A stretch of DNA of 51,375 nt, counting the filler, from Catajapyx aquilonaris (lineage: Eukaryota): the NCBI GenBank assembly GCA_000934665.2. It is 2 parts of 2 records of this genome, joined end to end, with 100 filler letters (N's around TTAATTAATTAA, not from the genome) between each part and the next. Parts side by side here need not be neighbours in the genome. Positions count along the whole stretch, not along the records: positions 1 to 25,633 come from KZ539332.1; 1 more part is not named here. One strand, written 5' to 3'. A model generated the notes under the pieces. That model was not told the origin of the DNA. It saw only the letters and a list, made by a program, of their open reading frames with translations, and ran no database searches. Positions 670 to 28,589 of this stretch are shown piece after piece. Each line of letters opens with the position of its first letter. Position 1 is the stretch's first letter. The translations under genes were made by a program, and so were the position numbers.

Positions 670-891
670 TGAACGGCAGCATATTGAGCTGCAAATAGTG
701 TCAAGTCTGCAAGCAATGTGTGTGTTTTTCACATTACATGGCTCCTATGCCTGTTGGAGAGGATGGAGCCTGACTTGCATGAAATGCTGATTCAGACCTC
801 ACCATAGCATTGGTTTTGTTGATTGATTGAGGGGAGCCAAAGCAACTAATGCGATCTGGGTGAGAGGGTAGAGGAAGTGGAGAGAACTTAC

Positions 892-1038
892 CACTTGAAA
901 ACCAGCCTCTGTCCAGCCTGGGGATTGGGACCTGAGAGGTGGAAGGCTGTGAATTTAGCCACTTCACCACCGTGCCACCCTCACCATAGTATTTGACGAG
1001 CATTATGTCTGAACCTGTTGCTTGCCAGTAAGGCTCCA
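892..1038 (-). CDS. Candidate isolated internal coding exon of an unidentified gene
   Basis: 147-nt open phase-1/phase-1 segment bounded by ctacag and G|gtaagt, encoding EPYWQATGSDIMLVKYYGEGGTVVKWLNSQPSTSQVPIPRLDRGWFSS. No family recognised and partner exons not identified. Confidence 0.3.
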
Positions 1039-1776
1039 CTGTAGTTATTTAAAGTAGGCATGTTTAACATATTGCAAGTCAGGTTAGTGAGGAGTTCCTT
1101 TCAGTTAAAAAAGCAAGGTTTAATTTTCCACAAAATTGAATGTCCGGTAGTGAAGAAGTAGTGTTACACTTGCACGATTTAATATAATTTTATCTAGACT
1201 GGCTGCGCCTGTCATCGTCATGAGAGAAAAACCATACTGCGTACCCAATTGTTGATCTTAAATGTACCGTTTTGCATAGATATACATTGTATTAAGAACA
1301 CTATCATTAAGTAGGCCATCTTGTCATTCCCCTCGACATACCTGTGAGAATAAACCTCTCATTTCATACTTTGAACTGTGCCTTGTTTTGTAGTCTATGA
1401 CCCATTCTGTCAGGCATGAGCTGAGATGTCAAAGTGTTTCACAACTCCTGCCTGATTCAAAGGTTGTATTATTGCTAGTGAAGAAAAAGACAACTGTTGG
1501 AGTAGATACTGAGAGCTCCCTGTAATTCCACATTTCAGTAGCAGGGTGCTAATCTGCATACCTAATGTCACACCAGAAAACTTTACATTTTCGTGGCCTT
1601 AGTTTTTTCCGCTTCGATAACAAAAACCAAACCTGCAACTGCTCGATAATTTTTACTTTTGATGGTTCCTACCAGCCCAGGCCAATAGAAAAAGCTGTGC
1701 TGTTATCTCTTCCCGCATTGGTGCTAGTATTTCTGCAATGGAATCACACTGTGGAACTTGCTGCCTGTCGTCCAAC

Positions 1777-2082
1777 ATGGAGCCCGGAGGTAGACTGGTT
1801 TTCACAAGGCTGGAAAAGAATACTTTGATGGCCTTAGTCCAGTCCGGCAATGACATTATCAAATTGAAGAAAACGGATGCAGTCACCCTAGGTGAGAATA
1901 AGAAGGCGTGGGAGGTGCAGGCTGCAGACTACATCAACCAGCTGAATGTGCGGCCATGCACAGCAGCCCAGATGAAGACGCTGTGGAAAAAGATTCCTGA
2001 TTATTTCAGAAGGTCCAATACACCACCTGCTATAAGCAGAGTAGATATGGAGGGGTCTTTGGGGGAGAGGGGGGGGGGGGGG
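1777..2082 (+). mobile_element. Myb/SANT-like DNA-binding domain ORF (MSANTD3 / PIF-Harbinger ORF1 type), running into an N gap
   Basis: FTRLEKNTLMALV...IIKLKKTDAVTLGENKKAWEVQAADY...RPCTAAQMKTLWKKI fits the Myb_DNA-bind_5 pattern (F..E...L..LV...KKTD....K..AW.....R...Q.K..W). It could be a Harbinger remnant or a domesticated gene. Confidence 0.6.
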
Positions 2083-2391
2083 NNNNNNNNNNNNNNNNNN
2101 NNNNNNNNNNNNNNNNNNNNNNNNNNNNNNNNNNNNNNNNNNNNNNNNNNNNNNNNNNNNNNNNNNNNNNNNNNNNNNNNNNNNNNNNNNNNNNNNNNNN
2201 NNNNNNNNNNNNNNNNNNNNNNNNNNNNNNNNNNNNNNNNNNNNNNNNNNNNNNNNNNNNNNNNNNNNNNNNNNNNNNNNNNNNNNNNNNNNNNNNNNNN
2301 NNNNNNNNNNNNNNNNNNNNNNNNNNNNNNNNNNNNNNNNNNNNNNNNNNNNNNNNNNNNNNNNNNNNNNNNNNNNNNNNNNNNNNNNNNN
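2083..2391. other. Assembly gap (309 N) flanked by poly-G
   Basis: Run of N in the sequence. Confidence 0.99.
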
Positions 2392-2698
2392 GGGGGTCAA
2401 AAAGTGGCCAAAAATCGGTGACGTGGTGTATGGACGACCCCTTACGGGTGACCTAAGGGACATGGAAATAGCTATGAATTCTCGTGGATAAAATCATATT
2501 GCATAGTGTATTTACATTACAAGTGGTGATCAATCTCCATATTCTGAATTAGGTATACATTACATAGTAAAAGTAACTGGTTGCGATCAGAAGTCACTTT
2601 AAATCTTTTTTAAAAACCTGCAGCACTTCTACTGCCATTCCAGGGAAGAGATAGAGATGCAAGTAGTAGTGACAGTGACATCCAGAATATTAATGAGT

Positions 2699-2804
2699 AG
2701 GGGTGGAATTTTCGTCCCACTGATAATTACTGCTAACTTTAGCAGTACCATTGCCAACACTGCTAAGTTAGCAGTAACTATCAGTGAGACGAAAATTCCA
2801 CCCT
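2699..2804. mobile_element. Short palindromic MITE, copy 1
   Basis: GGGTGGAATTTTCGTCCCACTGATAATTACTGCTAACT is inverted to AGTTAGCAGTAACTATCAGTGAGACGAAAATTCCACCC. A second copy lies at 24835-24944. Confidence 0.7.
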
Positions 2805-3422
2805 TGTTTTCCCATTTTTCCACATGCTGTTATTAGAGAATAGCCTATACATCGCATCACAGAAAATGAAATAATCGTATGCTATGTGATAGCTTTCATC
2901 ACATTATTTACTATGTATTGAATTTGGAAAATAAATAAATATAATGCGGAATTTGTTTAAATTAAATTATCCGCGCCTTTGGGAAAAAACAAAATCATAT
3001 TTCAAAGGAGACTGGGTTCTTCTCACCCACAATCCTTTCCTCAACTCATCCTTCTATGCTGGACTTGTGAGCTCTGTAAAGGAGAGGAAGAGGGGTACGA
3101 AGGCTCCCAGATGTATGGGACCTGAGTGAGGAGGGATGGGGTGGAAGGGGCAGACCCTGGTAATGAAAAAAAAAAAAACATTAAAAAACTCCAAGATGGA
3201 CATTTGCCTATTCTTAGATTCAAGGATTCAATTGTTGCAATCGAGTTAGACACTTCTTTCTGTACGGCTGGTAGACGAAAATCAGGAAATTAAGCCTTTC
3301 TGTGCATGTCTGTTCTCTCGACCCTTCTGCTGGGAAATGAGAAAATTTTACGTACTCGCCAACATGAACTTGGACTTAGGGAGACTGAAAGTGCATTGAT
3401 ATCCCATCGTAAGGCCCTGCCT

Positions 3423-3568
3423 GCACTTCGAGTTATGGAGAACTAGTCTTCGAGTTATAGAAATTCGAGTTAGGGAAGTTTATTTCCTATTATTTTACAT
3501 TGTGACCAACCAAGCTCATCATTTTCTTCGACTTATAGAGAACTTCGACTTATAGAAGTTTTACTGTG
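3423..3568. mobile_element. Tigger/pogo-type MITE end fragment
   Basis: Repeated TTCGA(G/C)TTATAGA motifs ending in TTTTACTGT, typical of pogo-type subterminal repeats. The other end was not found. Confidence 0.4.
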
Positions 3569-4558
3569 TATTCAAAAGTACAAGAGTTTTTACCACCATG
3601 ATGTATACAAGTAAATGTAGTGGGGCTGATTTTTAATGCAGCAGTAGGCATAGAGATTAAGTACTATAATTAGCACAATGTCATTGGCACCCAGAAAGTG
3701 AAGCATGTCTCTCATCTCCTCAAGCTACTGAAAGAACAACTTGTATCAGCTCAATGAATTCATGAAAATATTGTGTATAATACCACTCCATGGAAGAAAG
3801 CTTTAATGATGAAGTCTTACACTGGACTATCCCTACTCCCAAATGTATGACATGCATATTTTATATTGAGCAGTCATGTCACATAGACAGAATTAGAAAG
3901 TTCTTCTATTAGCATGTGCAACACTTACTCATTCCAAAGCGATAATATGAGTTGATGGTGCAAGACAATAGTAAAGAAAGTGAATCTGCACCTACACTGT
4001 GAAAGTTGAGTGAAGATGCACAGATGCATGCCATTTAACTCAACCCATTCAACACTAGCTACAGTAGTTGTAATAGTGGTAGTAGTAATAACAGCAACAG
4101 TAACCAATTAGCGCTTCTTTGTGCTGTACATGCAGTAACACTGACCTGAAGTTCATGTAAACATAACTGTACACTTGGTCACACTGGAAGAGCCAAGCAC
4201 GAAGAACTGTGGTGGGTGTGCATGCATAAGGGAAGCCACAGATGTACGTTATGATATCTTGAAGATGAAAGTGACCCAGTTCTTACCTCAAGTGTCAATT
4301 TGTGCCCTTCTTCTGCCATCACCATCCCTCTCGGCTAACTTTCTACCTTGCACCTTAATCTCTCCATACAAACAGAAAGGTAAGGTGGGACATAAAAAGT
4401 TTTGAAAAGGGACCTGAATGAATCCCACCTGACGTAGTGTGCCAGTTGGTCCTAAGGTGTGGGGAAAGTGCTACCTTGTCGCGCTTGACCGACGCACCTA
4501 CCTTCTACTTAAAGCCTGCTCACAAGGTGTCTGAAGATACTTGGCGCACAGGCAGGAC

Positions 4559-5873: not shown

Positions 5874-8013
5874 TTAAGTACTCCTTGCTAGGATTCCCTT
5901 GACTACTGTGTCGAATGCTCTGTTAAAACAATTACACTAATTAAATCGTGCTCCTGTTTAATACAACATGTGACTTACGTGGATGTGATAGTCTCACTAG
6001 GTACATAGAATGGATTGCACATCATGTCAGTGTAGGCACTATGGAGCTTTCTAAACATCTGTAATAAATTGTTACATTAGAGCACAATATCTTCCAGTGG
6101 TCATTATCAACTTACCGTGCGAACTTCATTGTCACGAAGTGATGTGTTAGAACTTTCAACCACGATGATAAATTTTACCTTGGTATTGGTCATATATCCA
6201 AATCTGAATGTTGTCAAGAATCACTTCTGAGTTCTGATACATGTGTTATTACATGTCATGACAAAAGGATACACTTTATATTCCTCAGTGGAATAGAGTG
6301 GACCTAAGTACAGTTCTTTGAGATCTCCTGCTGCTGACTTGACCACTGGGGCAACCTTTTCCTCAACTACATCTAATGAAGTATGGACTGTATAATGAAA
6401 CTGAAGCTCCAAGTTTTTGTTCAAACACTGAATGTACAATGGCGAATTCTGTAAAAATATATGGGAAATTACACAATTAGTATGTTAACGTAATGTAACT
6501 GGCTCATCCCATGTCAGAGAGAACCAAGTGCAAAAATTAAGACACATTTGGTCTACTTTGACTCACAAAGTCCAAAATGTTATCCAAGACTTTAGTACTA
6601 GTTTACAATGGCATGGGACAGACCAATTTATAACAGGAATAATTACATTTGCCAAAATTACGAGGCTACTGACTGAAATGCGAATATTTTCATGTTTAAA
6701 AAATCCCAAAACATAATGAAACCTCTCCCCGTGTAGGACACACAAGTCCGAATCCCTAATGGCAGAAGCTTATTAAAACAGAAGCCTTGCCTTCACCATT
6801 GCAACATTGCATGGATCCCTTTTCTAATCCCACCACCCCTATTCCAACCACATCTATGGCAGATATTGACGGGCAAGTCACTTGGGAAGCCATGGTACAC
6901 TTCAAAAGAAATCTGCACTAGTTAGACTGGACTTCCATATCAATTTAAGGTAAAAGTCCGACGGGACTTGCGTAAATCCAAAGTCCATCAAACATTAAAC
7001 CTTAGCAACTTACCCCTTCCCAGAGATCGAGAAACTTTACTGTTGCATATCCAAAAAGAACTACTGTATGACTACAGGGGCCATACCATAACCATTTACA
7101 CTTTTACTTTTTTGCCCCAAATACAAGGCCCTTACAGGTCAGCAGATAGGCACTCATTATCCTGGGCTGAACACACTGGCACCACAGCACAGGTGTGGCA
7201 GCCTCTCCAGCCCCTCCTGAAACCACGTTTTGGAGCTGCAGTGTACCCACTCCAGGAAAACTGCTTGCATTTCAACAATGTCCTTGAAATGGTGTCCAAA
7301 CATGGGTTTTATCATGGCAATGACAGCTGTTCTTTCCCGGCTTGCATGGATCGGCGTGTTTCCTTGGCGGCTTTTTCTGGATGGCATGCTGCAAGCTGCA
7401 GAGGGTCGCCACATATTTGGAGCTGTTGATGGTAGTTACCAGTTCCAGCCAATAGGTCAGGATTATGCCCTTTGTGTCCCAAAAATGACAAAATCCCTTC
7501 GCTGACCCCATGTTGAGGAATTGTTGAACAAGCAGTTGTCCAGGAGTGGGTGCACCACACCTCCAAAACAAGGTTCCTGGAGGGCCTGGAGAGGCTACCA
7601 CACCCGTGACTCCTGTGCATTCGGCTCCAGGTGGATTCTATTGATAATGTGTGCCCATCTGCTGACCTGTACGGCCCCTGTATTTGTGGCAAAAAAATTG
7701 TGAATCAATATGGTATGGTCCTCGTATAATGAACCTTTCTGCTCCTGCCATCTTTCAAGAAAATGTTACGAAATGGTCTATCAAGTTGCTTATGCTTAAT
7801 GATACCTACTGCATTAATTGAACTTACATTTGCATACAACCATATTTTAACAATACAGCACCATAAGGAAGCAAGTTTTGTCATTTCTGCATTAAGGAGA
7901 GCAAACAATACAAACATACACAATTTCAAGATAGCGTCAAACTGGTGATTATTGATTCACAAACTGGTGAATATATTTACCTCTTTTCCTATGACAGCAA
8001 CGCAAACAGCCAT
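5874..8013 (-). CDS. TRAPPC2L: Trafficking protein particle complex subunit 2-like (sedlin family), 140 aa, 5 exons
   Basis: Exons 8013-7981 ([11 protein letters not shown]), 6448-6273 (NSPLYIQ...[12 protein letters not shown]...[15 protein letters not shown]), 6203-6116 ([29 protein letters not shown]), 6058-5979 ([18 protein letters not shown]...) and 5919-5874 ([14 protein letters not shown]). Junctions are GT-AG, total 423 nt, and the protein closely matches human TRAPPC2L. Confidence 0.95.
7075..7724. mobile_element. Non-autonomous mariner derivative built from two inverted transposase 3' ends, in TRAPPC2L intron 1
   Basis: TA|CAGGGGCCATACCATA ... TATGGTATGGTCCTCG|TA with TA TSD. The ~200-bp inverted arms translate to mariner C-terminal-like peptides ([21 protein letters not shown] and [20 protein letters not shown]). 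Confidence 0.75.
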
Positions 8014-9232: not shown

Positions 9233-12200
9233 ATGGAAGGACACATCATGTCGATGTGGGCTCTAGCATTATGTGTTACGATGTATGCTGAAGGTACCGA
9301 GCAGCGACCTAACTTCATCATCATGCTGATGGACGACGCAAGTATTTATTACTTATTCTCACCCACCCCAGCATGTCACAAATTCAAGGTCAGGATGTAA
9401 ACTAATATAAAGTTGACACATTATTTTACGTACGGTACGGTATATCCTGCATATCCAACCATGTTCCTCTGTATACGTCACTGCCAGTCCGTGGAGGCCG
9501 TCTATTATTTTATGTAAAATGCCTATTGTTGTGCCATCAGGATGTAGGTGTAACAGGGATGCCGGTTCATTCGTAAGGTCACACCAGTAGTGAATCACGA
9601 CAAATGTGAACCTTAACACTTTTTTATTCACTACAAATATGCTTTAGAAGACTATAATCACGTATGACATATCTTCAAGAATAAATCTGCACAAATCGTG
9701 CTTTGAAAAAAAAAACACACACACACGCACCCACACACACTTTGGTATATTCAAACTGACACTACACTTTCAATGGGTCTTGTTACTGGACAAGGGCCTG
9801 GTGTAGCACACTTTAGGTGAGCTGTCCCTGTTATGGCAGCCCAACCGTTCCCGCTCACCACGGAGGGCCTGGCGCCACAAAACAAACTGGTAAAGTCCAT
9901 TACTTCCAATGTCCTTCCTTTTCCTCTCCAAAAGCTCCAACGCAAGGGTGGGCTTCGGCTTTGATGCATACCATTTTCCAATCGTGTTCCGATGGATGTC
10001 GTTGTCCCAACAGTGCCACCTTCTTGGAACACCAGCTCCGTCCAGCAGTTCATTCCATGGCGCCTGCCGTTTTTTCTTCAGTTTTGAAATCTTGTAGTCG
10101 ATTTGGCTGATGAGGTAACTAATCCGGTTGATAGAGCTGGTGACAGCTTTTTCCATGCTCCATATACAAGAATGACCCGTCTTCCGGTCCGAATAGTACC
10201 TGCGCATCGTGTTGAGAGGATGGTGCAGAGGGACTATCGTCTCCATATGGAAGGACAAATTGCCTGTAACCTGGGGAGATAACGGGCATTGATCAGCAGC
10301 CTGGAGTTGCCATGACATTCGGTGTTGCCAACGGTATGCTCCAGTGCTATAACTGTTTCCGCTAGACGCTGAACGATCAGTATTGGCACCGGGGCATAAC
10401 ATGACAAATTGGCAGAAAAATGGTTCCTTACGCGAGTTAGGCCGTTTCCCTGCGAATTTAATTGCAGTGGTTTGGAAAAGAGATTTTTTTGTCTGAATTA
10501 TGATGTTGCTTCCTTATTCTGCAGTAGATATATCTAATGCATTCTAAAGGCCACCCGCACATTACGGACACACTTATCGAAATATTGCTCGCTTTCATTT
10601 CCTGGCAGAATCATTGATCCATTATATAAGCCACTCATATAGTCATATTGCATTTTCCGCTCCATATAACGCTGTACCGGTTGATTTTTCCTATAGCGCC
10701 AGAGTATCAGAATCCATCCTCATAAACCACACAATCATGCACCTGAATAGTTAGCCCATTTTCTCATTTGCAAATTTTAACGCCTGCTGTAATTTTGCCC
10801 CGTCTCCCACTGTAATTAGCTATGTAGCCAATCTAGGGTCCAGGTTTCTAGCGATAAAACATAATATGAAAATTATTATCTCCAAGCAGATGGGCTGGGG
10901 CGACTTAGGATCAAATGGCGAACCCCACAAAGAAACGCCGCATTTGGACCAAATGGCCAGAGAAGGAATGGTCTTTACAGATTTCTACACCTCGAGTCCT
11001 CTCTGCTCTCCGTGTAAGTTCCTAAACTTTAATTGCATTATTGTTAATAACTCATCAGTCCTTATATTCATGTAGCTCGAGCCTCACTTCTGACTGGTCG
11101 ACTCCCCATTCGCAACGGATTTTACACCACAAATGACATGATGTATGCCAAGTTTGGTGTTCTCCTCATAAAGTGCAGTTTTTTTTTCCTTACTCGCCCA
11201 ACTAATAAGGTCGCATGCTTACAAGGGAAGTGCAATTGTTGTAAATGGAGTTTCTGATTGAAACTTTGCACAATAATATAGGCAGGTAAGTTATTAAACA
11301 AAATGCAAACCGTTTTGGCGAATGCCTACAAAGTCAAAAGGTACGACCTCTCGAACTCACAAGGGACACTTTCCAAGGTCACACCGATTTTCTTGAAATT
11401 CGGTACAATGGTAGCCCACTCCAAGGGATGAAAAACGCACCTAAAGTGACTTGGTCAAAATGACCCGGTGACCCCTTTTTGGGGGGCAGAGGTCAACTCG
11501 TAATGCCGAAAACTCACCGATTTTCTTGAAATTCGGTGCATTGGTAGCCCCCAAAAAGGGGTCACCGGGTCATTTTGAGCAGGTCAGTTTAGGTGCGTTT
11601 TTCATCCCTTGAGGTGGGCTACCAATGTACCGAATTTCAAGAAAATCGGTGAGACCTTGGAAAGTGTGTCTTGTGAGTTCAAGAGGTCATAACCTTGTAG
11701 GCATGCGCCAAAACGGTTTGCATTTTGTTTCATAACTTACCTTCCTATACGTATTAATATGCAAAGTTTCATTCAGCAACTCCATTTACATCCCTTGTGA
11801 ACTCCTCCATCTGTGCATCATCCATTTTTCTTCTCGTTGTAGCTTATACTCCACAAAATATCATGGGAGGCATTGCAGAGACGGAAGTTCTGTTCCCGGA
11901 ATTGCTCATGACATCTGGGTACCGGAACAAGCTAGTTGGAAAGTGGTATTATGCTTTAACACTCAATATTTCTGAAAAATGTAAACAGACGCATATAGTG
12001 AACACATATTAGCGCAAATTAGACATAGCTTGAAGGTAGGTATATTGTAACTTAACAAAAGACACAGGATGTCATGAGCACTTTGGATTTGACCTCCGAG
12101 TCATCTGAGGTCGGAAAAATAACAAAATGAGGCCAAAATGGGTGCATATTGACCGTACAGCATCAAGGAGTCGAGATATCAATTTTAATGATGTTCAAAA

Positions 12201-15200
12201 GTATTTGTTGCGGGTGGCATCAGATTTGGCCTCCCACGTCATCTGAGGTCACAGCCAAGTGGTTACCAGCTGGGTGCTTTACTACTCGGGCAACGACTGG
12301 TAACTTTAAAAAGTGACTTACGCACCTTTGAGGTTTTACTGTATGTAACTTGCAGCAACCCTGCTGGTCACATCTACAACAGCCAGTGATATGAAGAAAA
12401 TTCCTAATGGTTGCATTTAGGATATCTCGATTAGGATCATGTGTCCAACAGGGTGATGTGTCAGGATAACTATTTTATTACCACTCATTTAAACCAAACT
12501 CACTTGTCAAAATAGGGGGGAAACCAAAAACAGTGTATGTGCCATTGGCATTTTTTTTTCGTGTAACAGAAAGCAAGACACATTGAAGGGGCACAGCTTA
12601 CTCTAATATTATATAAGGCAGGAGTTTTCCGATTGGCATCTTGCTTCTGTACTTTTCCTTAAAATTGCCTTGACAAGCATAAAGGGGGCAAGGAATAGAA
12701 GCAGGATGTCAAATAGGGAAATGCCTATGTTAGTGAAAAAATGCAGAAATCAGGGGCATTTCTCTGTTCTTCTTTTATAGGCATTTGGGTCACCAAGAGC
12801 AGTTTCTGCCCCTTCGTCACGGATTCCACGAGTGGTTTGGATCACCCAACTGCCACTTCGGACCATACGATGACGTATCCACACCTAACATTCCTGTATT
12901 TAGGAATTCCGAAATGGAAGGAAGGTAGCAGAATGAAGTACTAACGATACTGGTCAGTACTTAACAACTGTTCGTTTTAACTGCTTGTAGGTACTACGAA
13001 GATTACCAGATATTCCATAATGGCACATCTGATCTAACATACCTATACACTCTCGAAGCTGAGAAGTTCCTCTACGACATGGCCAGGAAGCAGCAACCAT
13101 TCCTCCTGTACTGGGCGCCCGATTCAACCCATGCTCCTGTTTACGCTTCCACAACCGGGACCAGTCTTCGAGGTGCGAGTGATATTATATTCGTCAAAAT
13201 CCAGTCACATAAAATGTTTCTTTCTAGGAATTTACGGCGATGCTGTGCAAGAACTGGACGAAGCAGTTGGGTTTTTATTGAGTGTGGTGCGCAAATCGGG
13301 CCTCCAAAACAATACGTTCGTATTTTTCACTTCGGATAATGGAGCTGCACTTGTCAGCAAGTATAATGGTGAGCTATATACTGTGTGTGTTATATGGAAC
13401 TGGCGATTACATTATTTAGCACAAGTTCTTGTGGGGTAAGAGTTGTTGACGTACTAACAACGCAGTGTTTTCGTATTGCGAACCCACTGAAACTTGATTG
13501 CAGAGAGTGTATTGGGCTAAGAGCTGGTTGTAACAGGTCAGATGCATTATATGGTGATAATCTATGGCCCGGTTGTATGAACGTAAATGAGGGAAAAGCT
13601 CCGATTTTGTGTAGGTGGATATGTGGAAAATGTATAGAAATGAAAAAAGGAAAATTGTTAGAATGACATGACAAAATTGTCGACATTGACTTTTGGGCCA
13701 TAATATCGTTACTCTATCAATCTCACAACTATTGCATTTATTTTATTAAATTGTCGGAATTCAATTACATTTCCCATGTCCCTACGTGTCACAGGCCATG
13801 TTGTTAACCATAGTGATTGTTGATGCAGGTGGAAGTTAGTTGCTGGGATAAACAATGAGTGACATCCTTTCCCTGAAAAAATACAACAATCATCTGATCA
13901 TAGACCTTACTATGCATCCACCTCCTGTGGTAATTTTTAAATTGAAAAAAATACGGATTTGTGCAATACCAGAATAGATAGCATAGGACAAAACTCAGTT
14001 TTACTTTTTCCTCTGACACTATTAGGAACAATATCCACTAACAATATTGTGGTGGTTCAGAAACCCCCCCCCCCTACAAAATATTTTTTTTACCTGACAC
14101 TTTAGAAGTCTACACAGTGGCTGGATTGCAAAAGAGCTGACCAATAGTCAAATTTTGACCTTGTTTCAATGAAAAGAAATTGAGTACCTACCTCGTATTA
14201 TTGTCCCCCTGGAGCAAAGAATGTGCATTGTATAAATAAGCATCATAATGATTTTGGTCAATTACCCACAAATGGTGGGTTTCCAATTGAAATGTCTGCA
14301 TCAGAGCAAAGGTGCTGCTCTGTAGGTCATTGCCTCCATAGCAGTACTCGTATCTTGACTCAAATATTGCCCTATGGACACTGGAGAAGTGTTTGGGCTA
14401 CATTTACTCCCACTGGCAACATTTTGGAACCACAATTCCAAAGCCCACTATCTGCATTTCCTTTCCAGTCTACTTGACATGTTATCACATTTCAGATAAG
14501 CCCTAAATGAAAATGCTTGGGTTTTGGAATTGTGGAGCTGATTTTGTCACGTCAGATGACATCACAATAGCATCCAATTCTAACCTTCCGCAGTTGTACA
14601 AAGACGCTGTGTAAAATAGGCAACAATATATTTCAAAATATGGTAGCATAATTAATATTCTGCAATACATACAAGCTAGGATGCTTGTATGTATTGCAGA
14701 ATATTAATTATGCTACCATATTTTGAAATATATTGTTGCCTATTTTACACAGTGTCTTTCACCCATCTTTCCCCACATAAACCCAATTTTTGACCCCTTT
14801 TCCGCTGTTTAAAACTGCTCATGGAACAATCTGGGAAAAGATATGAGTGTTTCAATGAATGTTGCAGGTGGAAGTAATGGACCATTCCTGTGTGGGAAAC
14901 AGACAACATTTGAAGGGGGCATGAGGGCCCCGGGTATTGCTTATTGGCCAGGGCACATTCCAGCAGGTCGGGTGTCCCATCAGGTGGCCACACAGATGGA
15001 CTTGTTCAGTACCCTGTTGGACTTGGCTGGGATCAAGCCACCTGCTCATTTTATTGATGGAATGAGTCTGAAAGAAGCCATGTTTGATAGCAAACAAGTG
15101 GACAGGTGAGACAGGTGCACTTCAGGCTACCTTTAGTTTAATTACACATTCTTGCAGGCCAGTGTTTTACTACCGTGGCAATGAACTGATGGCAGTACGA

Positions 15201-16092
15201 TTTGGGCCTTATAAAATGCACCTGTGGACATGGTCTACACCCGGATATGAACTAGAAATTGTGAGTTTTTTTACTCTTCTGGAGTGACTAATAAATATTC
15301 AGTACAGCATACACCATATTAAAAGTAATACATGTACAATGAATCATGTGAATAACTTGGATCAACCTCATGTTCTGTATTTGCCACTTATCACATAACT
15401 CACATAGCTCTACATGAATGAGTTAAGTGCACCAACTTACACACAGAATGCTACTTTCAGGGAATCAATTATTGCCCAGGAGCTTTTGTTCCCAATGTCA
15501 CAACAAGTACTCAAGTTGACCACACTGACAACCCAGTTTTGTTCCATCTTGGGAAAGATCCAGGTGAGAGATATCCTATTCGTTCTACTTCACAGGAGTA
15601 CCAATTGGCAGTGACAAAGTTGAAAGCCATTGTTGCTGACCACAAAGCTAAATTGATACCAGGAAAACCTGTACTCAACTGGTGTGATGATAGCAAGATG
15701 GTAAGTTTACGGCAGTATTAACATGTACTATCAGAACGGAAATAGTCCGGATACTTGGGAGGTAGGCTGACCATTGACAAGTGTCTGGACCATTTCCGTG
15801 CTGAAGTACCTTTGTACAGTGCCGGACATTAATTCCATCGTAGTGCTAGCGACATTTTCAGATGCGGCTTAAGTGCACAGCAGTTCACACGGTTTGCATT
15901 CCATCAATTTGCTTTGCACGTGGCACGTCTACCGCATCGGAAAATGTCGCTAGCAGTACGATGGAATTAATGTCCAGCACTGTACTCATAGAAATGTACT
16001 TTCAGCACTGGAGTCCTCCTGGATGCCAAAAGCTTGGGAAATGTTTGAAAGCTCCACCATCAAAGCCATATTTATGCCCATGGCCTCATTAG
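9233..16092 (+). CDS. GALNS: N-acetylgalactosamine-6-sulfatase, 11 exons
   Basis: Exons 9233-9337 (signal peptide + [12 protein letters not shown] donor), 10890-11013, 11076-~11156 (donor uncertain), 11843-11945, 12781-12924, 12991-13172, 13228-13368, 14868-15105, 15158-15260, 15461-15700 and 16006-16092. Motifs include MGWGDLG, the formylglycine motif [46 protein letters not shown] and the C-terminal [13 protein letters not shown]...CPWPH, all matching GALNS. Confidence 0.95.
11221..11797. mobile_element. Foldback-type MITE with ~260-bp inverted arms, in GALNS intron 3
   Basis: TGTAAATGGAG...GGTAAGTTAT...AAAATGCAAACCGTTTTGGCG...CCGATTTTCTTGAAATTCGG is mirrored by CCGAATTTCAAGAAAATCGG...CGCCAAAACGGTTTGCATTTT...CTCCATTTACATCCCTTGT. 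Confidence 0.8.
14607..14752. repeat. Perfect 70-bp inverted repeat with a 6-nt spacer, in GALNS intron 7
   Basis: 14607-14676 is the exact reverse complement of 14683-14752, with loop TAGGAT. It extends to 14600-14759 with one G.T pair. Confidence 0.95.
15726..15808. mobile_element. ~85-bp palindromic mini-MITE
   Basis: TACTATCAGAACGGAAATAGTCCGGATACTTG...CAAGTGTCTGGACCATTTCCGTGCTGAAGTA. A related copy lies at 23033-23115. Confidence 0.6.
15817..15982. mobile_element. Tc1/mariner-type MITE (TA TSD, CAGTG termini)
   Basis: TA|CAGTGCCGGACATTAATTCCATCGTAGTGCTAGCGACATTTTC ... GAAAATGTCGCTAGCAGTACGATGGAATTAATGTCCAGCACTG|TA. Confidence 0.8.
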
Positions 16093-18406
16093 GTAGAAAC
16101 TTGCAGATAGATTTTATTGATGAAATTAATGGATGGCGACTTCTGGACTGCTTAAGATCTATTTGAATGGACTTGCATACTGAAATATAACCTCTCCTTG
16201 CTCTCCATTACTACTTCACAGTATGACTTGAAAATAATATTCTATTATTAACACTTAATATAAATTCAATAAGAGCTGGAGATTTACTAGAAAACTGCCT
16301 GAGTCAATTATGGATAATGTCACCTGTAGATTTTTAAGTGCATTATTCAAAAATCCAAACAGTGCAGACTACTTAGGGTTGAGGTGTTCTGACTCCTGAG
16401 GAATCCAATTCTGCAAAACATTCACTACACTTTCAAAGGATAACACACATAATGAACAAGACTGAAGAGAAACATTGAGTATAATAGTACACTTTAATTC
16501 CAGATAACCAATTTCACATGCCTTTATGGCATGACTTCCATTACATAAATGCATAATTTCCCATTAAAACTCCGGAATTGTGCACAAGACCTGGATATAA
16601 GCTGCGATTGAGAAATATAACACACTGACTTCGTCTTCTCCACTTTGGCAATTTTCTACAGGAACAAAATGACACAATCCCAGCTACAACGACTGTACTT
16701 TTTTGACTAGATGGAAACAATCCTCACTGATCATGTCTGTCAAGCCTTTCTCTTGATGTCTTACAAAATACATGGAATTGAAATAAAGTAGTTCATCTCA
16801 ACACACCAGATGGAGAAGGAGTAGTAACTTAAATAGTACCTGCAGCAGATAAATCACTGGGAAGACTAAATATCAGCAGGATGTTTGCAGCAAAAGCACG
16901 AAATACAGAATCACAGAAGTTAACAATACGACAAATATAAGGGTTGACTGGAAAGATTTTCCTCTGCCAGTTTGTCCACTCCTAATATGAAATCAACAGT
17001 ACATCCTACACTGGAGTTTTGGCTGCAAATAGCCGTAGAGCTCAAACTGAACTAGCAAGTAACCTTAAGAAATAAACATCTGTTCTAGACACACAATTTC
17101 TTGTGGTACTTACGGTATTATCTTGATCACATTCTATACGCCAATAATGCGCTTGCAGAGAGACAGAGTTGTCACATAATGCATTATTTTGATAATTGTA
17201 TCATATTCATGACAACTCCGCATCTTTGTGAGGGAATTATTGCTCCAGTTTGGGCTGGGGTAGACATAAGATGTTGGGTTAGGAAGCTGCAAATACCTTG
17301 ACCTGTTTGACTAGAATTAAGGCTAGAATTGACTGAATATCTGACTGAGAGCTAACATAAGATTGTCTCTTGTCATTTTTAACCTGAGCCTAAGCACCAA
17401 TGATTTACCATTGCAATGGGGTCACCAGTACAAAAGCAAGCCAGAACACAAGCATCTGCAAAAAACAGTGACGCCATTTACTTAGGTGATCATGATGACT
17501 GATAACAATTTTTTCAAAACAGGAAAGTTAAATATCACAACAAAATGCTGAGGATTTTGGCAGTTCATATACCTGACTCTTATAGAAGGATCCTACCAAG
17601 AAAGGCAAGGAACTGTGTGTGCTAGGACACCTATTTTGCTGATATTTTGGTGCAAAATATGAATAATGTGAACCAGAAAACTTAAGCCAAAATTGCAAAT
17701 GAGATATGGTTAATTGAGATGATGATGATCTGGGTAAAGCAATTCACCCCTGAGGGGTAGACTGCACATAGTAACATAGGACTTGATTATTATTTTATTT
17801 GTTAAAATTCTTGCTGAAATGGGGAAGGGGAATGGTCCCAAGGTTTTCGTCCATTTATGACCCTCTTAAAGCCAGATCTTTTCTCTTGGCCCTGGGCAGA
17901 TAAGAGTGGAATTCTGCCTGGACATGTCAGTACGAAACAGGGAAAAGACCCAGCCATGCAAGGGTGATGGGCATAAGTGCTAGACCATGTTCCCTTTAAT
18001 CAATTAAGATATATGGCACATTGCATGAATCTGTGAACTGACATGCTCTCCTCCAGTTCATTTCTCCAGCTTCCTTATTGCTGATTCACACATTGCATTT
18101 TATTCCCAGTGCCCACAACCTGCCAGCCAGGTCACCATACAAGCTCATGTTGCTTCCACCCCCACAATTGAGAAAAAAATTGCCCAAAGAGAAGCTTGTT
18201 GGTCCACAGACCCACACAATGTGCCGCAAGGTCAAACATTGTCAATTGCCATTTTTTCAATTTTCAAATGGTGCATCTACGGATTGGACATGTGATTTTA
18301 ATACATATTTTTATAGTGAAGGTAGGTGAAGCTCTGTATGTCATGTATGACACATTGTTCATGAACAATTGCAATTGATGAGGTTTCCTATGAAAATGGC
18401 CCATTG

Positions 18407-19154
18407 CACAGTATGTCCAAACGCGGAAATGCTTGGACAAAAATGGCTTTCATTCCGCGCGGATTTGTCACGAAGGTCAGGATATTCCTGTGATTTTCAA
18501 GATGAAAAGTAGTGAATTTCACAAGTTTCTCTTCGAATGACACACCAAACGAATGACTAGACTCCCCTGTTATAGATTCACTTAGTTTTAATTGCACATA
18601 ATTGCAACTTTTGTCAGGGGAGCATGACAAATGCTGCATCCTTTTTGGAAAAAATGTGGCATTATGTGGTATTGAAACGAAGTGAGTCTATAACTAGGGA
18701 GTCTAGTCTTTCGTTTAATGTGCGATTCGAAGTGAAATATTGTGAAATCCGTTACTTTTCGTCTTTGAAATCAAATCAATGACGTGACAAATACGCGTGA
18801 TGGAGGCCTCAACAAAGGAGTACCTGGCACAGATATTTCAAGGTCACATTCAAAGGGTAAGTATTACTTAGCCAGAGGTATTTTATGCACAACTTAAAAT
18901 GCGGATGAGACTGAATTTGGAAATGCCATTTCTTCCATGACCATTCGAAGCCGACTGAATAGACACAAAAAGGTGGCAGACGAACACTCCACTTGAGTAC
19001 CACCCTGGCAAAAAATGCATCTCAATTGAACCTACCGTGGGGTTTTTATTATTGTTCAGATATTAATTTCTTACATTAGGGCAGATTTGACACGACTCTG
19101 CCAACTTGGTTTTACCATTTTTGTCCTATTGTTCTCGTGTTTGGACACACTGTG
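18407..19154. mobile_element. Non-autonomous Transib/RAG-like DNA transposon with RSS-like ends and 5-bp TSD
   Basis: TSD CATTG at 18402-18406 and 19155-19159. Left end: CACAGTA-TGTCCAAACGCGGAAATGCTTGG-ACAAAAATG. Right end (reverse complement): CACAGTG-TGTCCAAACACGAGAACAATAGG-ACAAAAATG. CAC termini plus a 5-bp TSD are diagnostic of the Transib/RAG superfamily. No transposase ORF is present. Confidence 0.85.
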
Positions 19155-19549
19155 CATTGTAAAGAGTACCATGCTGTTGGACAAGCATTTCATTAACAGT
19201 CCGTTTTAGTCAGATTGGATGCCATTCACAATAAAAATAGAAATAATCATGTGTCCTAATCCCATCCTGCAGGCCGTTGCAACCCTAAAAAGTGGCAAAT
19301 TCTCAAGACACCAATCCCTACGCTTAAGTTGGTTATGCCTCTTTCGCTATTATAGCTTTCTTCTTTAATTCACACTATTACATACCTATTGCACCAAAAA
19401 ATATTAGTTCCATAAGCAAAATAAGTGTTCTAATTCTCCCCTATCCCACTTGGCCCTTGAGGTTTAAAAGGTTTTATTTAGCTTAGAAAAACTCACACAA
19501 CTTTCCAGTCAACCCTTTTACAAGTCAGTTGAATATGGTTCACCTGCAT

Positions 19550-24621
<5,072 letters not shown>

Positions 24622-25633: not shown

Positions 25634-25733
25634 NNNNNNNNNNNNNNNNNNNNNNNNNNNNNNNNNNNNNNNNNNNNTTAATTAATTAANNNNNNNNNNN
25701 NNNNNNNNNNNNNNNNNNNNNNNNNNNNNNNNN
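25634..25733. other. Artificial contig-joining linker (44 N + TTAATTAATTAA + 44 N)
   Basis: Exactly 100 nt and symmetric. The central 12-mer gives stop codons in all six frames. Confidence 0.9.
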
Positions 25734-27687: not shown

Positions 27688-28589
27688 CCCTTTGATGACG
27701 GAGTTTTTTTTCCCCCTTTTTCGGAAATTTTATGACCTCGCCGATTTTCTTCAAATTCGGTGCATTGGTAGCCCACACCAAGGGATAAAAAACGCACCTG
27801 AAAAGGCACCTGATAAAAATGACCTCGTGACCAAATTTTGAAGGGGGGTCAAATCATAAAATTTCGACCTCGCCGATTTTCTTGAAATTCGGTGCATTGG
27901 TAGCCCACCCCAAGGGATGAAAAACGCACCTATAGTTACTTGATCAAAATGACCTCGTGACCCAATTCTGATGAGGGCAGAGGTCAAATTCCAACCTCAC
28001 CGATTTTCTTGAAATTCGGGGGTTATACACACTTGCATTTTTTGCGTACACGTACTACCCGCCTTAGTAAATCACAAGGGAGACTTTGCAAGTGCCAGTC
28101 ACAAATTTTCTTGAAATTCGGCGCATTTACATAGGCTCCCTCCAATATGGGTCACAGGGTCATGTCGAGCAGGGAACTATAGGTGGGTTTGTCATCCCTT
28201 GGTGTGGGCTACTAATGCACCGAATTTGAAGATAATCGGCGAGGTCGGAATTTTATTATTTGACCTCTGCCCCACTCAAAATTGGGTCACAGGATCACTT
28301 TTATCAGGTCACTATAGGTGCGTTTTTCATCCCTTGGGGTGGGCTACCAATGCACCGAATTTCAAGAAAATCGGTGAGGTCGAAATTTGACCTCTGCCCC
28401 CCTCCAATATGGGTCACAGGGTCATTTCGAGCAGGGAACTATATGTGCATTTGTCATACCTTGGTGTGGGCTACCAATAGACCGAATTTGAAGAAAATCG
28501 GTGAGGTTGAAATTTTTTGCGTTGAAAAATGACCCAAGTTGGCAGGGCAAATCGCCGGACATCATATGATGGACGTAGGCAGCAAAGGG
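27688..28589. mobile_element. piggyBac-type non-autonomous element with internal inverted arrays of ~125-bp repeats
   Basis: TTAA|CCCTTTGATGAC ... GGCAGCAAAGGG|TTAA. Internal tandem units contain CCGATTTTCTTGAAATTCGGTGCATTGGTAGCCC in forward orientation in the left half and reversed in the right half. Confidence 0.8.

Follow-up and report, generated by a model that had tools for sequence, protein, structure and literature searches.

The window (the whole stretch of DNA analysed, 51,375 nucleotides from Catajapyx aquilonaris, filler included) contains a gene-less element of 748 bases (18407-19154). Two genes, one sulfatase-like and one IMPDH/GMP-reductase-like, flank it with their 3′ ends converging on it, and both were recognised by Pfam searches on the ORFs of the window. 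The element is bordered by two identical copies of CATTG, which lie outside of its span (18402-18406 and 19155-19159, neither assigned to a strand) and give the target context cCATTGt. The initial annotation described a perfect duplication of the target site (TSD) of 5 bp at this place, and we could read it directly on both sides. At this one copy, 5 bp is the only length that fits the flanks; the alternatives of 2, 3 and 4 bp fail.

Each end of the element is formed by a 40-bp terminal inverted repeat (TIR). The left TIR (18407-18446, plus strand) consists of the heptamer CACAGTA (18407-18413), a spacer of 23 bp (18414-18436), the nonamer-like ACAAAAATG (18437-18445) and a final G. The right TIR (19115-19154, minus strand) has the same composition, with the heptamer CACAGTG (19154-19148), a spacer of 23 bp (19147-19125), ACAAAAATG (19124-19116) and again G. 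Both arrangements had been proposed before and are correct to the base.

The interior of the element contains an imperfect palindrome of 340 bp (18458-18797, no strand assigned), whose arms (18458-18615 and 18648-18797) are separated by a loop of 32 nt. The arms were found by an inverted-repeat search and local alignment. When folded as DNA, the palindrome reaches −100.9 kcal/mol with a z-score of −14.9, and none of 100 shuffled sequences folded as well. We considered the palindrome as a separate nested element, but no duplication is visible at its borders and none of the 15 joints listed between matching contigs skips exactly 18458-18797. It is repeated as strongly as the ends of the element (contig depth of 1255-3668 against 35 in the flanks in run X1, see below) and is therefore part of the family unit. 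The remaining right part of the interior (18798-19114, no strand assigned) is non-coding and includes the least-repeated bin (18792-18837), with a depth of 408 compared to 794-4199 in the other bins of the element (X1).

The longest ORF over the element encodes 99 aa and matches no Pfam family at E ≤ 0.01. We scanned 19 ORFs of at least 32 aa at E ≤ 1, and three of them had sub-threshold matches and nothing better. A Tc1-type HTH match is located at 18898-18993 (E 0.058, sub-threshold). In the whole window, none of the 139 ORFs of at least 75 aa matches a RAG1- or Transib-type family or an Ig/TCR-type family in Pfam, and Rfam at the gathering threshold returned 0 matches. An exon-like stretch with the pattern ATG...GG/GTAAGT (18801-18863) was considered as the leftover first exon of a transposase but is unsupported, as it falls in the least-repeated bin and has no Pfam match. 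Its peptide has 19 aa, which is too short for significance in large protein searches.

Similarity between the two ends

The inverted-repeat search paired both ends over 45 nt with 80 % complementarity, and the ungapped identity of the two 40-nt ends is 32/40. All eight mismatches fall at position 7 or within positions 17-28. The earlier observation of a divergent distal spacer, combined with conservation close to the heptamer and in the nonamer, is correct. Past position 40 the likeness between the ends breaks off sharply. Behind the heptamer, the two ends carry the same 9 bp, TGTCCAAAC. Each end reads CACAGTRTGTCCAAAC, where position 4 is A and positions 13-15 are AAA. Two spacer places of the right end, 19127 and 19129, carry A and G in most other copies, as at the left end. 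This gives a common inner block of 15 nt, CTTGGACAAAAATGG, and an identity of 34/40 between the ends.

There are 67,081 pairs of CAC and GTG at a distance of 100-6000 bp in the window, of which 71 are flanked by the same 5 bp on both sides. A match at 29 or more of the remaining 37 TIR positions has a probability of 3e-11, which gives an expectation of about 2e-9 such pairs per window. A scan of the whole window for a 5-bp TSD, CAC/GTG tips and a TIR identity of at least 28/40 returned the pair of the element as the single match. For the 16-nt tip we counted two occurrences in the window, where 0.05 are expected.

Copies of the element in sequencing contigs

Other copies were sought in contigs from four public runs of two studies, where X1-X3 come from one sample and X5 from the second study. 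Contigs matching the stretch at 80-100 % likeness were recovered from all four (261 in X1, 240 in X2, 242 in X3 and 17 in X5). In X1, they divide into 33 contigs with a likeness of at least 99 %, 61 with 95-99 %, 93 with 90-95 % and 74 below 90 %. The summed contig depth over 18424-19159, which is not a copy number, is 51-59 times that of the flank in X1-X3 and 6 times in X5. The flank bins are even in depth, around 35 in X1. The depth rises on the left within the bin 18378-18423 and on the right falls from 1920 to 43 past 19159 (X1), and both steps coincide with the heptamers.

The contigs of other copies leave the element at the same places. On the left, eight to nine contigs continue into mutually unlike sequence before 18405 (agreement of about 0.5), and on the right five contigs from X2 continue into unlike sequence behind 19156. 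In X5 the same holds for single contigs behind 19159 and behind 19161 and for two contigs before 18401. On the left side the contigs still match through TG (18405-18406) before the flanks become unrelated, and on the right side they match through CA (19155-19156) or through the entire CATTG and then diverge. The TG before CAC and the CA after GTG are thus common to other copies, which points to a CA.TG target. The family is multi-copy, with its other copies known from short assembled contigs, several of which continue into unrelated flanks, and with the likeness ending at the heptamers. As for the copy in the window, its left junction is bridged without difference by records of X1-X3 covering 18102-18443 and its right junction by records of X1-X3 and one record of X5, all covering 19097-19459.

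The copy in the window differs from the family majority at no fewer than 27 of 748 positions and the insertion is therefore not fresh. Among the 40 variant places listed out of 171, three belong to the TIRs (80 bases) and 37 to the interior (668 bases), with no clear difference between the two. A group of four contigs suggests a variant in which two additional bases, CA, lie beside the heptamer (place 19126), and based on this variant the spacer length of the family may not be strictly fixed.

We also searched metagenome and viral contigs for the 16-nt tip pattern. The pattern matched at least 116 metagenome loci, but the inner block was present in none of the matches listed, and their best identity to either 40-nt end was 30/40, with 16 of these positions fixed by the pattern itself. 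All were judged to be chance matches, including the following two pairs of loci. L001 and L002 have 21 nt in common, CATTG among them, but represent one locus seen in two assemblies: their flanks match and an inverted partner is missing. L036 and L062 share 21 nt and also the 8 nt upstream, again without an inverted partner. In viral contigs the pattern matched 10 loci, with 0 true copies. Blastn of the whole element against the 126 listed metagenome and viral loci resulted in just four matches of 20-32 nt.

Comparison with Transib families and other transposons

According to the description by Kapitonov & Jurka 2005, a 5-bp TSD is the hallmark of the Transib superfamily and the 38-bp Transib TIR consists of a heptamer, 23 bp and an A-rich nonamer (CACAATG-23-AAAAAAATC). 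The same paper reports RSS23-like TIRs for 'most Transib families' and a 12/23 arrangement for a few, gives the targets cCASTGg and cCAWTGc for some families, and in its Fig. S4 shows the TSD CATTG recurring in copies of TransibN2_AG, TransibN1_DP and hopper. Symmetric TIRs in most Transib families are described also in later papers. The element analysed here displays a 5-bp TSD (one copy, both sides) and TIRs composed of a CAC heptamer, 23 bp and an A-rich block. Its contigs document many copies in different contexts with likeness ending at the TIR tips, and its target is palindromic, of the CAWTG/CASTG type (cCATTGt here, TG/CA in other copies).

The inner blocks can be compared position by position. 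In the alignments of Kapitonov & Jurka 2005 (Fig. S4), CCAAAA stands at TIR positions 31-36 in TransibN1_DP, TransibN1_DM and Transib-N1_SP, and TGG at 28-30 in the first two. In the element, positions 28-30 read TGG and positions 31-36 read ACAAAA, which is the register of TransibN1_DP and TransibN1_DM, and its ACAAAA is in register with the CCAAAA of Transib-N1_SP as well. An [A/C]CAAAA block at 31-36, 23 bp from the heptamer, is thus common to the element and published non-autonomous Transib families. Hopper has ACAAAAAT at 30-37. The heptamer CACAGTG is found also in TransibN3_AG and Transib-N1_SP in the same figure. Behind the heptamer, TransibN1_DP has the motif GTCCRAAC and a similar motif is present in the element (GTCCGAAC at 8-15 in TransibN1_DP, GTCCAAAC at 9-16 in the element). 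Beyond these motifs the element is unrelated in sequence to the published families, and its end has 18/40 ungapped identities to that of TransibN1_DP, counted by eye. The element further differs in its heptamer (CACAGTR, not CACTATG), in the host lineage and in the 340-bp internal palindrome of its family. The 5-bp TSD and the CAC...GTG tips are shared by the element, TransibN1_DP, TransibN1_DM and hopper from Drosophila, TransibN1-N3_AG from Anopheles and Transib-N1_SP from sea urchin. The published non-autonomous families are, like the element, gene-less, 0.4-2 kb long and present in many copies.

HzTransib from Helicoverpa zea, the biochemically characterised active Transib described by Carmona et al. 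2016, also has 5-bp TSDs and a heptamer whose CAC is essential. It is autonomous, whereas the element is gene-less, and the likeness of its TIRs to the RSS nonamer was reported as 'little or none', in contrast to ACAAAAATG at 23 bp in the element. By analogy with HzTransib and RAG, we infer the same nick-hairpin cut-and-paste mechanism for the element. Both ends would be bound by a RAG1-core-like DDE enzyme, a Transib transposase whose gene lies elsewhere, with the CAC of the heptamer setting the cut site and the A-rich inner block at its fixed distance serving as a second contact. The enzyme would nick and then hairpin the flanking DNA, and the excised element would be reinserted with a 5-bp stagger.

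The initial annotation left the class as Transib/RAG-like, and a non-autonomous derivative of a RAG-like (RAGL) transposon of the RAG1L-RAG2L, ProtoRAG type is indeed the closest competitor of Transib. In the published descriptions RAGL TIRs share with the element the 5-bp TSD, the tips starting with CAC and a stretch of conserved sequence right after the heptamer, and non-autonomous RAGL elements occur in pearl oyster and deuterostomes. In PflRAGL-A the heptamer is accompanied by a conserved TR2 of 9 bp, a spacer and a nonamer-like block rich in AT. In the element the 9 bp behind the heptamer are likewise the same at both ends, and the CAAAC they contain is found also in RAGL TR2 motifs. However, the element does not fit the TIR consensus of protostome RAGL, CACTWMCAAACKTYKBB, in which AAA occupies positions 8-10, since it has A at position 4 and AAA at 13-15. 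Neither the A-rich TR2 at positions 8-10 nor the ProtoRAG spacers of 27 and 31 bp are seen in it. The spacers of PflRAGL-A differ by 10 bp between the ends, while both of ours have 23 bp, and the TIRs of RAGL-B are described without the A-rich nonamer present here. The literature mentions just 'a small number' of non-autonomous RAGL pairs, in contrast to the roughly 50-fold contig depth of this family, and the register of the inner block fits the published Transib-N families. We therefore regard a RAGL origin as improbable: the Transib part of the earlier classification stands and the RAG-like part is not supported.

Elements of the CACTA/EnSpm-Chapaev type have TSDs of 2-4 bp and CACTA/CACTG-type tips. 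The element also begins with CAC, its palindrome is highly repeated in itself and the sub-threshold Tc1-type match lies inside the element, so we considered an origin from CACTA/EnSpm, Chapaev or a similar superfamily whose tips are of the CAC type, or a composite with the inner palindrome as the mobile unit and incidental outer ends. The flanks, which fit a 5-bp duplication alone, and the tips, which read CACAGT and not CACTA/CACTG, argue against the former. As for the latter, the depth step and the loose contig ends are at the outer heptamers and not at the palindrome, which is also not skipped as a unit in the joints mentioned above. Both are very unlikely. Finally, the window holds a single copy, as might be seen if a chance inverted repeat met a chance 5-bp direct repeat or if the assembly had produced an artefact. 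The expectation of about 2e-9 pairs per window, the hundreds of similar contigs, whose depth changes abruptly at the ends, and the junctions bridged without difference by contigs of two studies make this hardly credible. We conclude, with a probability of roughly 0.85, that the element belongs to the Transib superfamily as a non-autonomous member, and that CATTG between convergent host genes was the target of its insertion.

Resemblance to V(D)J signals and its meaning

We evaluated the RSS likeness of the ends by counting the matches to the consensus and to the critical positions, which are heptamer 1-3 and nonamer 5-6 according to Kapitonov & Jurka 2005. Compared to the vertebrate 23-RSS, CACAGTG-23-ACAAAAACC, the heptamer matches at 7/7 positions on the right end and 6/7 on the left, including the critical positions 1-3, and the 23-bp spacer is alike. 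The nonamer matches ACAAAAACC at 7/9 positions including the critical positions 5-6, and this count and the exact spacing agree with those given before. Unlike in the vertebrate pairing, both ends are of the 23-type, without a 12-type partner, and they bound a mobile repeat, while vertebrate RSSs flank V, D or J segments. Beyond the RSS parts, the two ends also have the first 9 bases of the spacer and 6 bases around the nonamer in common. A genuine V(D)J signal was rejected, as both spacers have 23 bp and the neighbours are the sulfatase-like and IMPDH/GMP-reductase-like genes, with no Ig/TCR-type Pfam family among the 139 ORFs.

The ends are RSS-like because Transib ends normally look so, and the combination of RSS-like 23/23 ends with a 5-bp TSD is best read as an ordinary Transib. 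An earlier suggestion was that the element would bear on the origin of the 12/23 rule. This is not supported, since RSS23-like symmetric ends are already the usual Transib state in Kapitonov & Jurka 2005 and later papers, and one more Transib with 23/23 symmetry thus tells us nothing new about this question. The resemblance to the 23-RSS is the textbook property behind the Transib-RAG1 link of 2005 and gives no fresh hint on the 12/23 rule.

It seems unlikely that there is an autonomous Transib partner whose N-terminal nonamer-binding-like domain reads ACAAAAATG and measures 23 bp at both ends, maybe with a TR2-like contact to TGTCCAAAC as well. If so, it would be a natural enzyme with both modes of DNA reading on symmetric ends, and thus a tractable model of the state before the 12/23 asymmetry. 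Nonamer-binding-like regions and symmetric ends of Transibs are already in print.

The significance of the element beyond annotation is little. The repeat catalogue of this genome gains one non-autonomous Transib family, which has a target of the CAWTG type and an internal palindrome and may already be named, and the element indicates that a Transib transposase was active in this lineage.

Paired ends and target site duplication

The 748-bp element (18407-19154) is flanked on both sides by CATTG, at 18402-18406 and 19155-19159. Direct reading of the window sequence bore out all coordinates of the initial annotation, including the perfect target site duplication (TSD) of 5 bp. The left end (18407-18445, plus strand) consists of CACAGTA, 23 bases and ACAAAAATG, and the right end (19154-19116, minus strand) of CACAGTG, 23 bases and ACAAAAATG, as had been described. 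In the repeat search of the window, the two ends came out as an inverted repeat of 45 nt with 80% complementarity. Aligned without gaps, the two 40-bp TIRs are identical at 32 positions; apart from position 7, the mismatches are confined to positions 17-28, and the identity breaks off sharply past position 40.

Identical 5-bp flanks were found in 71 CAC...GTG pairs of the window, and the scan of the whole window for the combined TSD, CAC/GTG and TIR architecture gave the end pair of the element as its sole match. The probability that at least 29 of the 37 remaining TIR positions match by chance is 3e-11, with about 2e-9 cases expected in the window. The end-and-TSD feature is real.

A repeat family in public sequencing runs

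Contigs of four public runs were aligned to 18102-19459 with a likeness of at least 80%. X1, X2 and X3 represent one sample, and X5 is a small run from a second study; they yielded 261, 240, 242 and 17 aligned contigs, respectively. The depth of the flanks is flat (approximately 35, 28, 22 and 6), and the mean summed depth over 18424-19159 exceeds that of the flank by a factor of 51-59 in X1-X3 and of 6 in X5. The rise lies in the bin containing the left heptamer and the drop right after 19159. This shows that the element belongs to a repeat family, with summed contig depth not equal to copy number.

In X1-X3, 8-9 contigs match inward of 18405 and their outward parts are mutually unlike (agreement ~0.5). 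Five contigs of X2 match up to 19156 and continue into mutually unlike sequence, and X5 contigs diverge before 18401, behind 19159 and behind 19161. As contigs run into unlike flanks, the copies are situated in different places and form a multi-copy family with similarity ending at the heptamers. The copies are mostly preceded by TG and followed by CA, which indicates a palindromic CA.TG target. The right junction of the element is bridged without difference by contigs of both studies and the left one by those of X1-X3; no empty-site joint was present among the contig joints listed for the four runs over 18102-19459. The element departs from the majority letter at no fewer than 27 of the variant places listed, and the insertion is therefore not a fresh one.

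The other copies mostly carry the left-end letter at 19127 and 19129, hence the ends of the family agree at 34 of 40 positions and share the inner block CTTGGACAAAAATGG. Four X2 contigs of other copies extend past this block, from 19126 outward, and their 30-letter consensus contains two extra bases (CA repeat) beside the heptamer. From these contigs, with a median loose length of 14 letters, some copies may weakly be suspected of a 25-bp spacer.

Interior and genomic setting of the element

The longest open frame over the element has 99 aa, and no Pfam family was found in its frames at E<=0.01; three of the 19 frames of at least 32 aa scanned at E<=1 had matches, all sub-threshold. The element is without coding capacity. 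In a 32-aa frame at 18898-18993 (plus strand), the Tc1/Tc3 transposase HTH (PF01498) is matched below threshold, with E 0.058 and 14.1 bits where the cut-off is 31.5; this match may represent a decayed Tc1-like gene scrap carried by the family, or noise. The stretch 18801-18863 (plus strand) is exon-like: an ATG (purine at -3, G at +4) is followed by an open frame of 19 codons and then GG/GTAAGT. Its bin is the one with the lowest depth in the element (X1 depth 408 versus 794-4199 elsewhere), and we found no support for it being coding. The left-central part is an imperfect palindrome of 340 bp (18458-18615 and 18648-18797, arms of ~158 and 150 nt, 32-nt loop) with tips CGCGGATTTGTCACG and CGTGACAAATACGCG; folded as DNA, it reaches -100.9 kcal/mol (z -14.9). 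Several aligned contigs display internal deletions.

The element sits between the convergent 3′ ends of a sulfatase-like gene (exons 10755-15718, plus strand, PF00884 and PF14707) and an IMPDH/GMP-reductase-like gene (exons 19553-24460, minus strand, PF00478), with its end 391 bp past the end of the last coding frame of the latter. Elsewhere, the window contains a Sedlin_N exon (6224-6484, minus strand, Pfam) and a mariner-type transposase fragment (7275-7637, minus strand, PF01359 Transposase_1, E 5e-9); long frames overlap on the two strands between 6926 and 7704, pointing to a decayed copy of mariner. A frame with a weak DUF5976 match (E 9e-5, under cut-off) crosses a tandem repeat at 28138-28515 (127-bp unit, 2.9 copies, 81% matches). 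Runs of N occupy 2083-2391, 25634-25677 and 25690-25733, and the long all-X "ORFs" are artefacts of the first.

Relationship to Transib and RAG-like transposons

The element is most likely a non-autonomous Transib. According to Kapitonov & Jurka (2005), 5-bp TSDs mark the Transib superfamily, the 38-bp consensus end starts with CACAATG and runs through a variable spacer of 23 bp to AAAAAAATC, the TIRs are RSS23-like in "most Transib families" and 12/23 in a few, and some families prefer cCASTGg or cCAWTGc as targets. In their Fig. S4, TIR positions 31-36 read CCAAAA in TransibN1_DP, TransibN1_DM and the sea-urchin Transib-N1_SP, and the element has ACAAAA there; TGG at 28-30 is common to the first two and the element. 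TransibN1_DP carries GTCCGAAC directly behind the heptamer and the element GTCCAAAC, one base further in, while hopper has ACAAAAAT at 30-37. The right heptamer CACAGTG is that of N3_AG and N1_SP, and the TSD CATTG recurs in TransibN2_AG, TransibN1_DP and hopper copies. All the features that define a non-autonomous Transib and can be tested, namely every one but the autonomous partner, are found in the element.

The initial annotation spoke of a Transib/RAG-like element; the Transib class stands, and the RAG-like part is not supported. A derivative of a RAG1L-RAG2L (RAGL) transposon, which we consider unlikely, would have the same 5-bp TSD and CAC tips, but the element does not follow the protostome RAGL TIR consensus CACTWMCAAACKTYKBB, with AAA at 8-10. 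Moreover, the literature describes RAGL-B ends without a nonamer, ProtoRAG spacers of 27/31, PflRAGL-A spacers differing by 10 bp in length and only few non-autonomous RAGL pairs. Still less probable is that the element stems from another superfamily, or that the palindrome by itself is the mobile unit. No clear duplication is visible flanking 18458-18797; the palindrome is repeated to the same extent as the TIRs and is therefore part of the family unit, though it may once have been a separate foldback element. A chance arrangement of the whole is, given the end statistics, hardly credible.

What a symmetric 23/23 signal was suggested to mean for the emergence of the 12/23 rule was overstated. 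Kapitonov & Jurka had described symmetric RSS23-like ends of Transib elements by 2005, later papers have restated this, and NBD-like regions of Transib transposases are also published, so the element adds nothing new on this point. The literature comparison was aimed at the kind of element rather than the family itself, and the family may already have been named.

For the non-autonomous Transib, the TSD, ends, multi-copy state and target observed here can be joined to an enzyme and chemistry modelled on published work on HzTransib and RAG. A Transib transposase encoded elsewhere would bind both 40-bp ends. The CAC of each heptamer would determine where cleavage occurs, and the A-rich inner block, at a constant distance of 23 bp, would provide a second contact. 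Cutting would proceed by nick and hairpin, and integration would take place at CAWTG-like sites with a 5-bp stagger.
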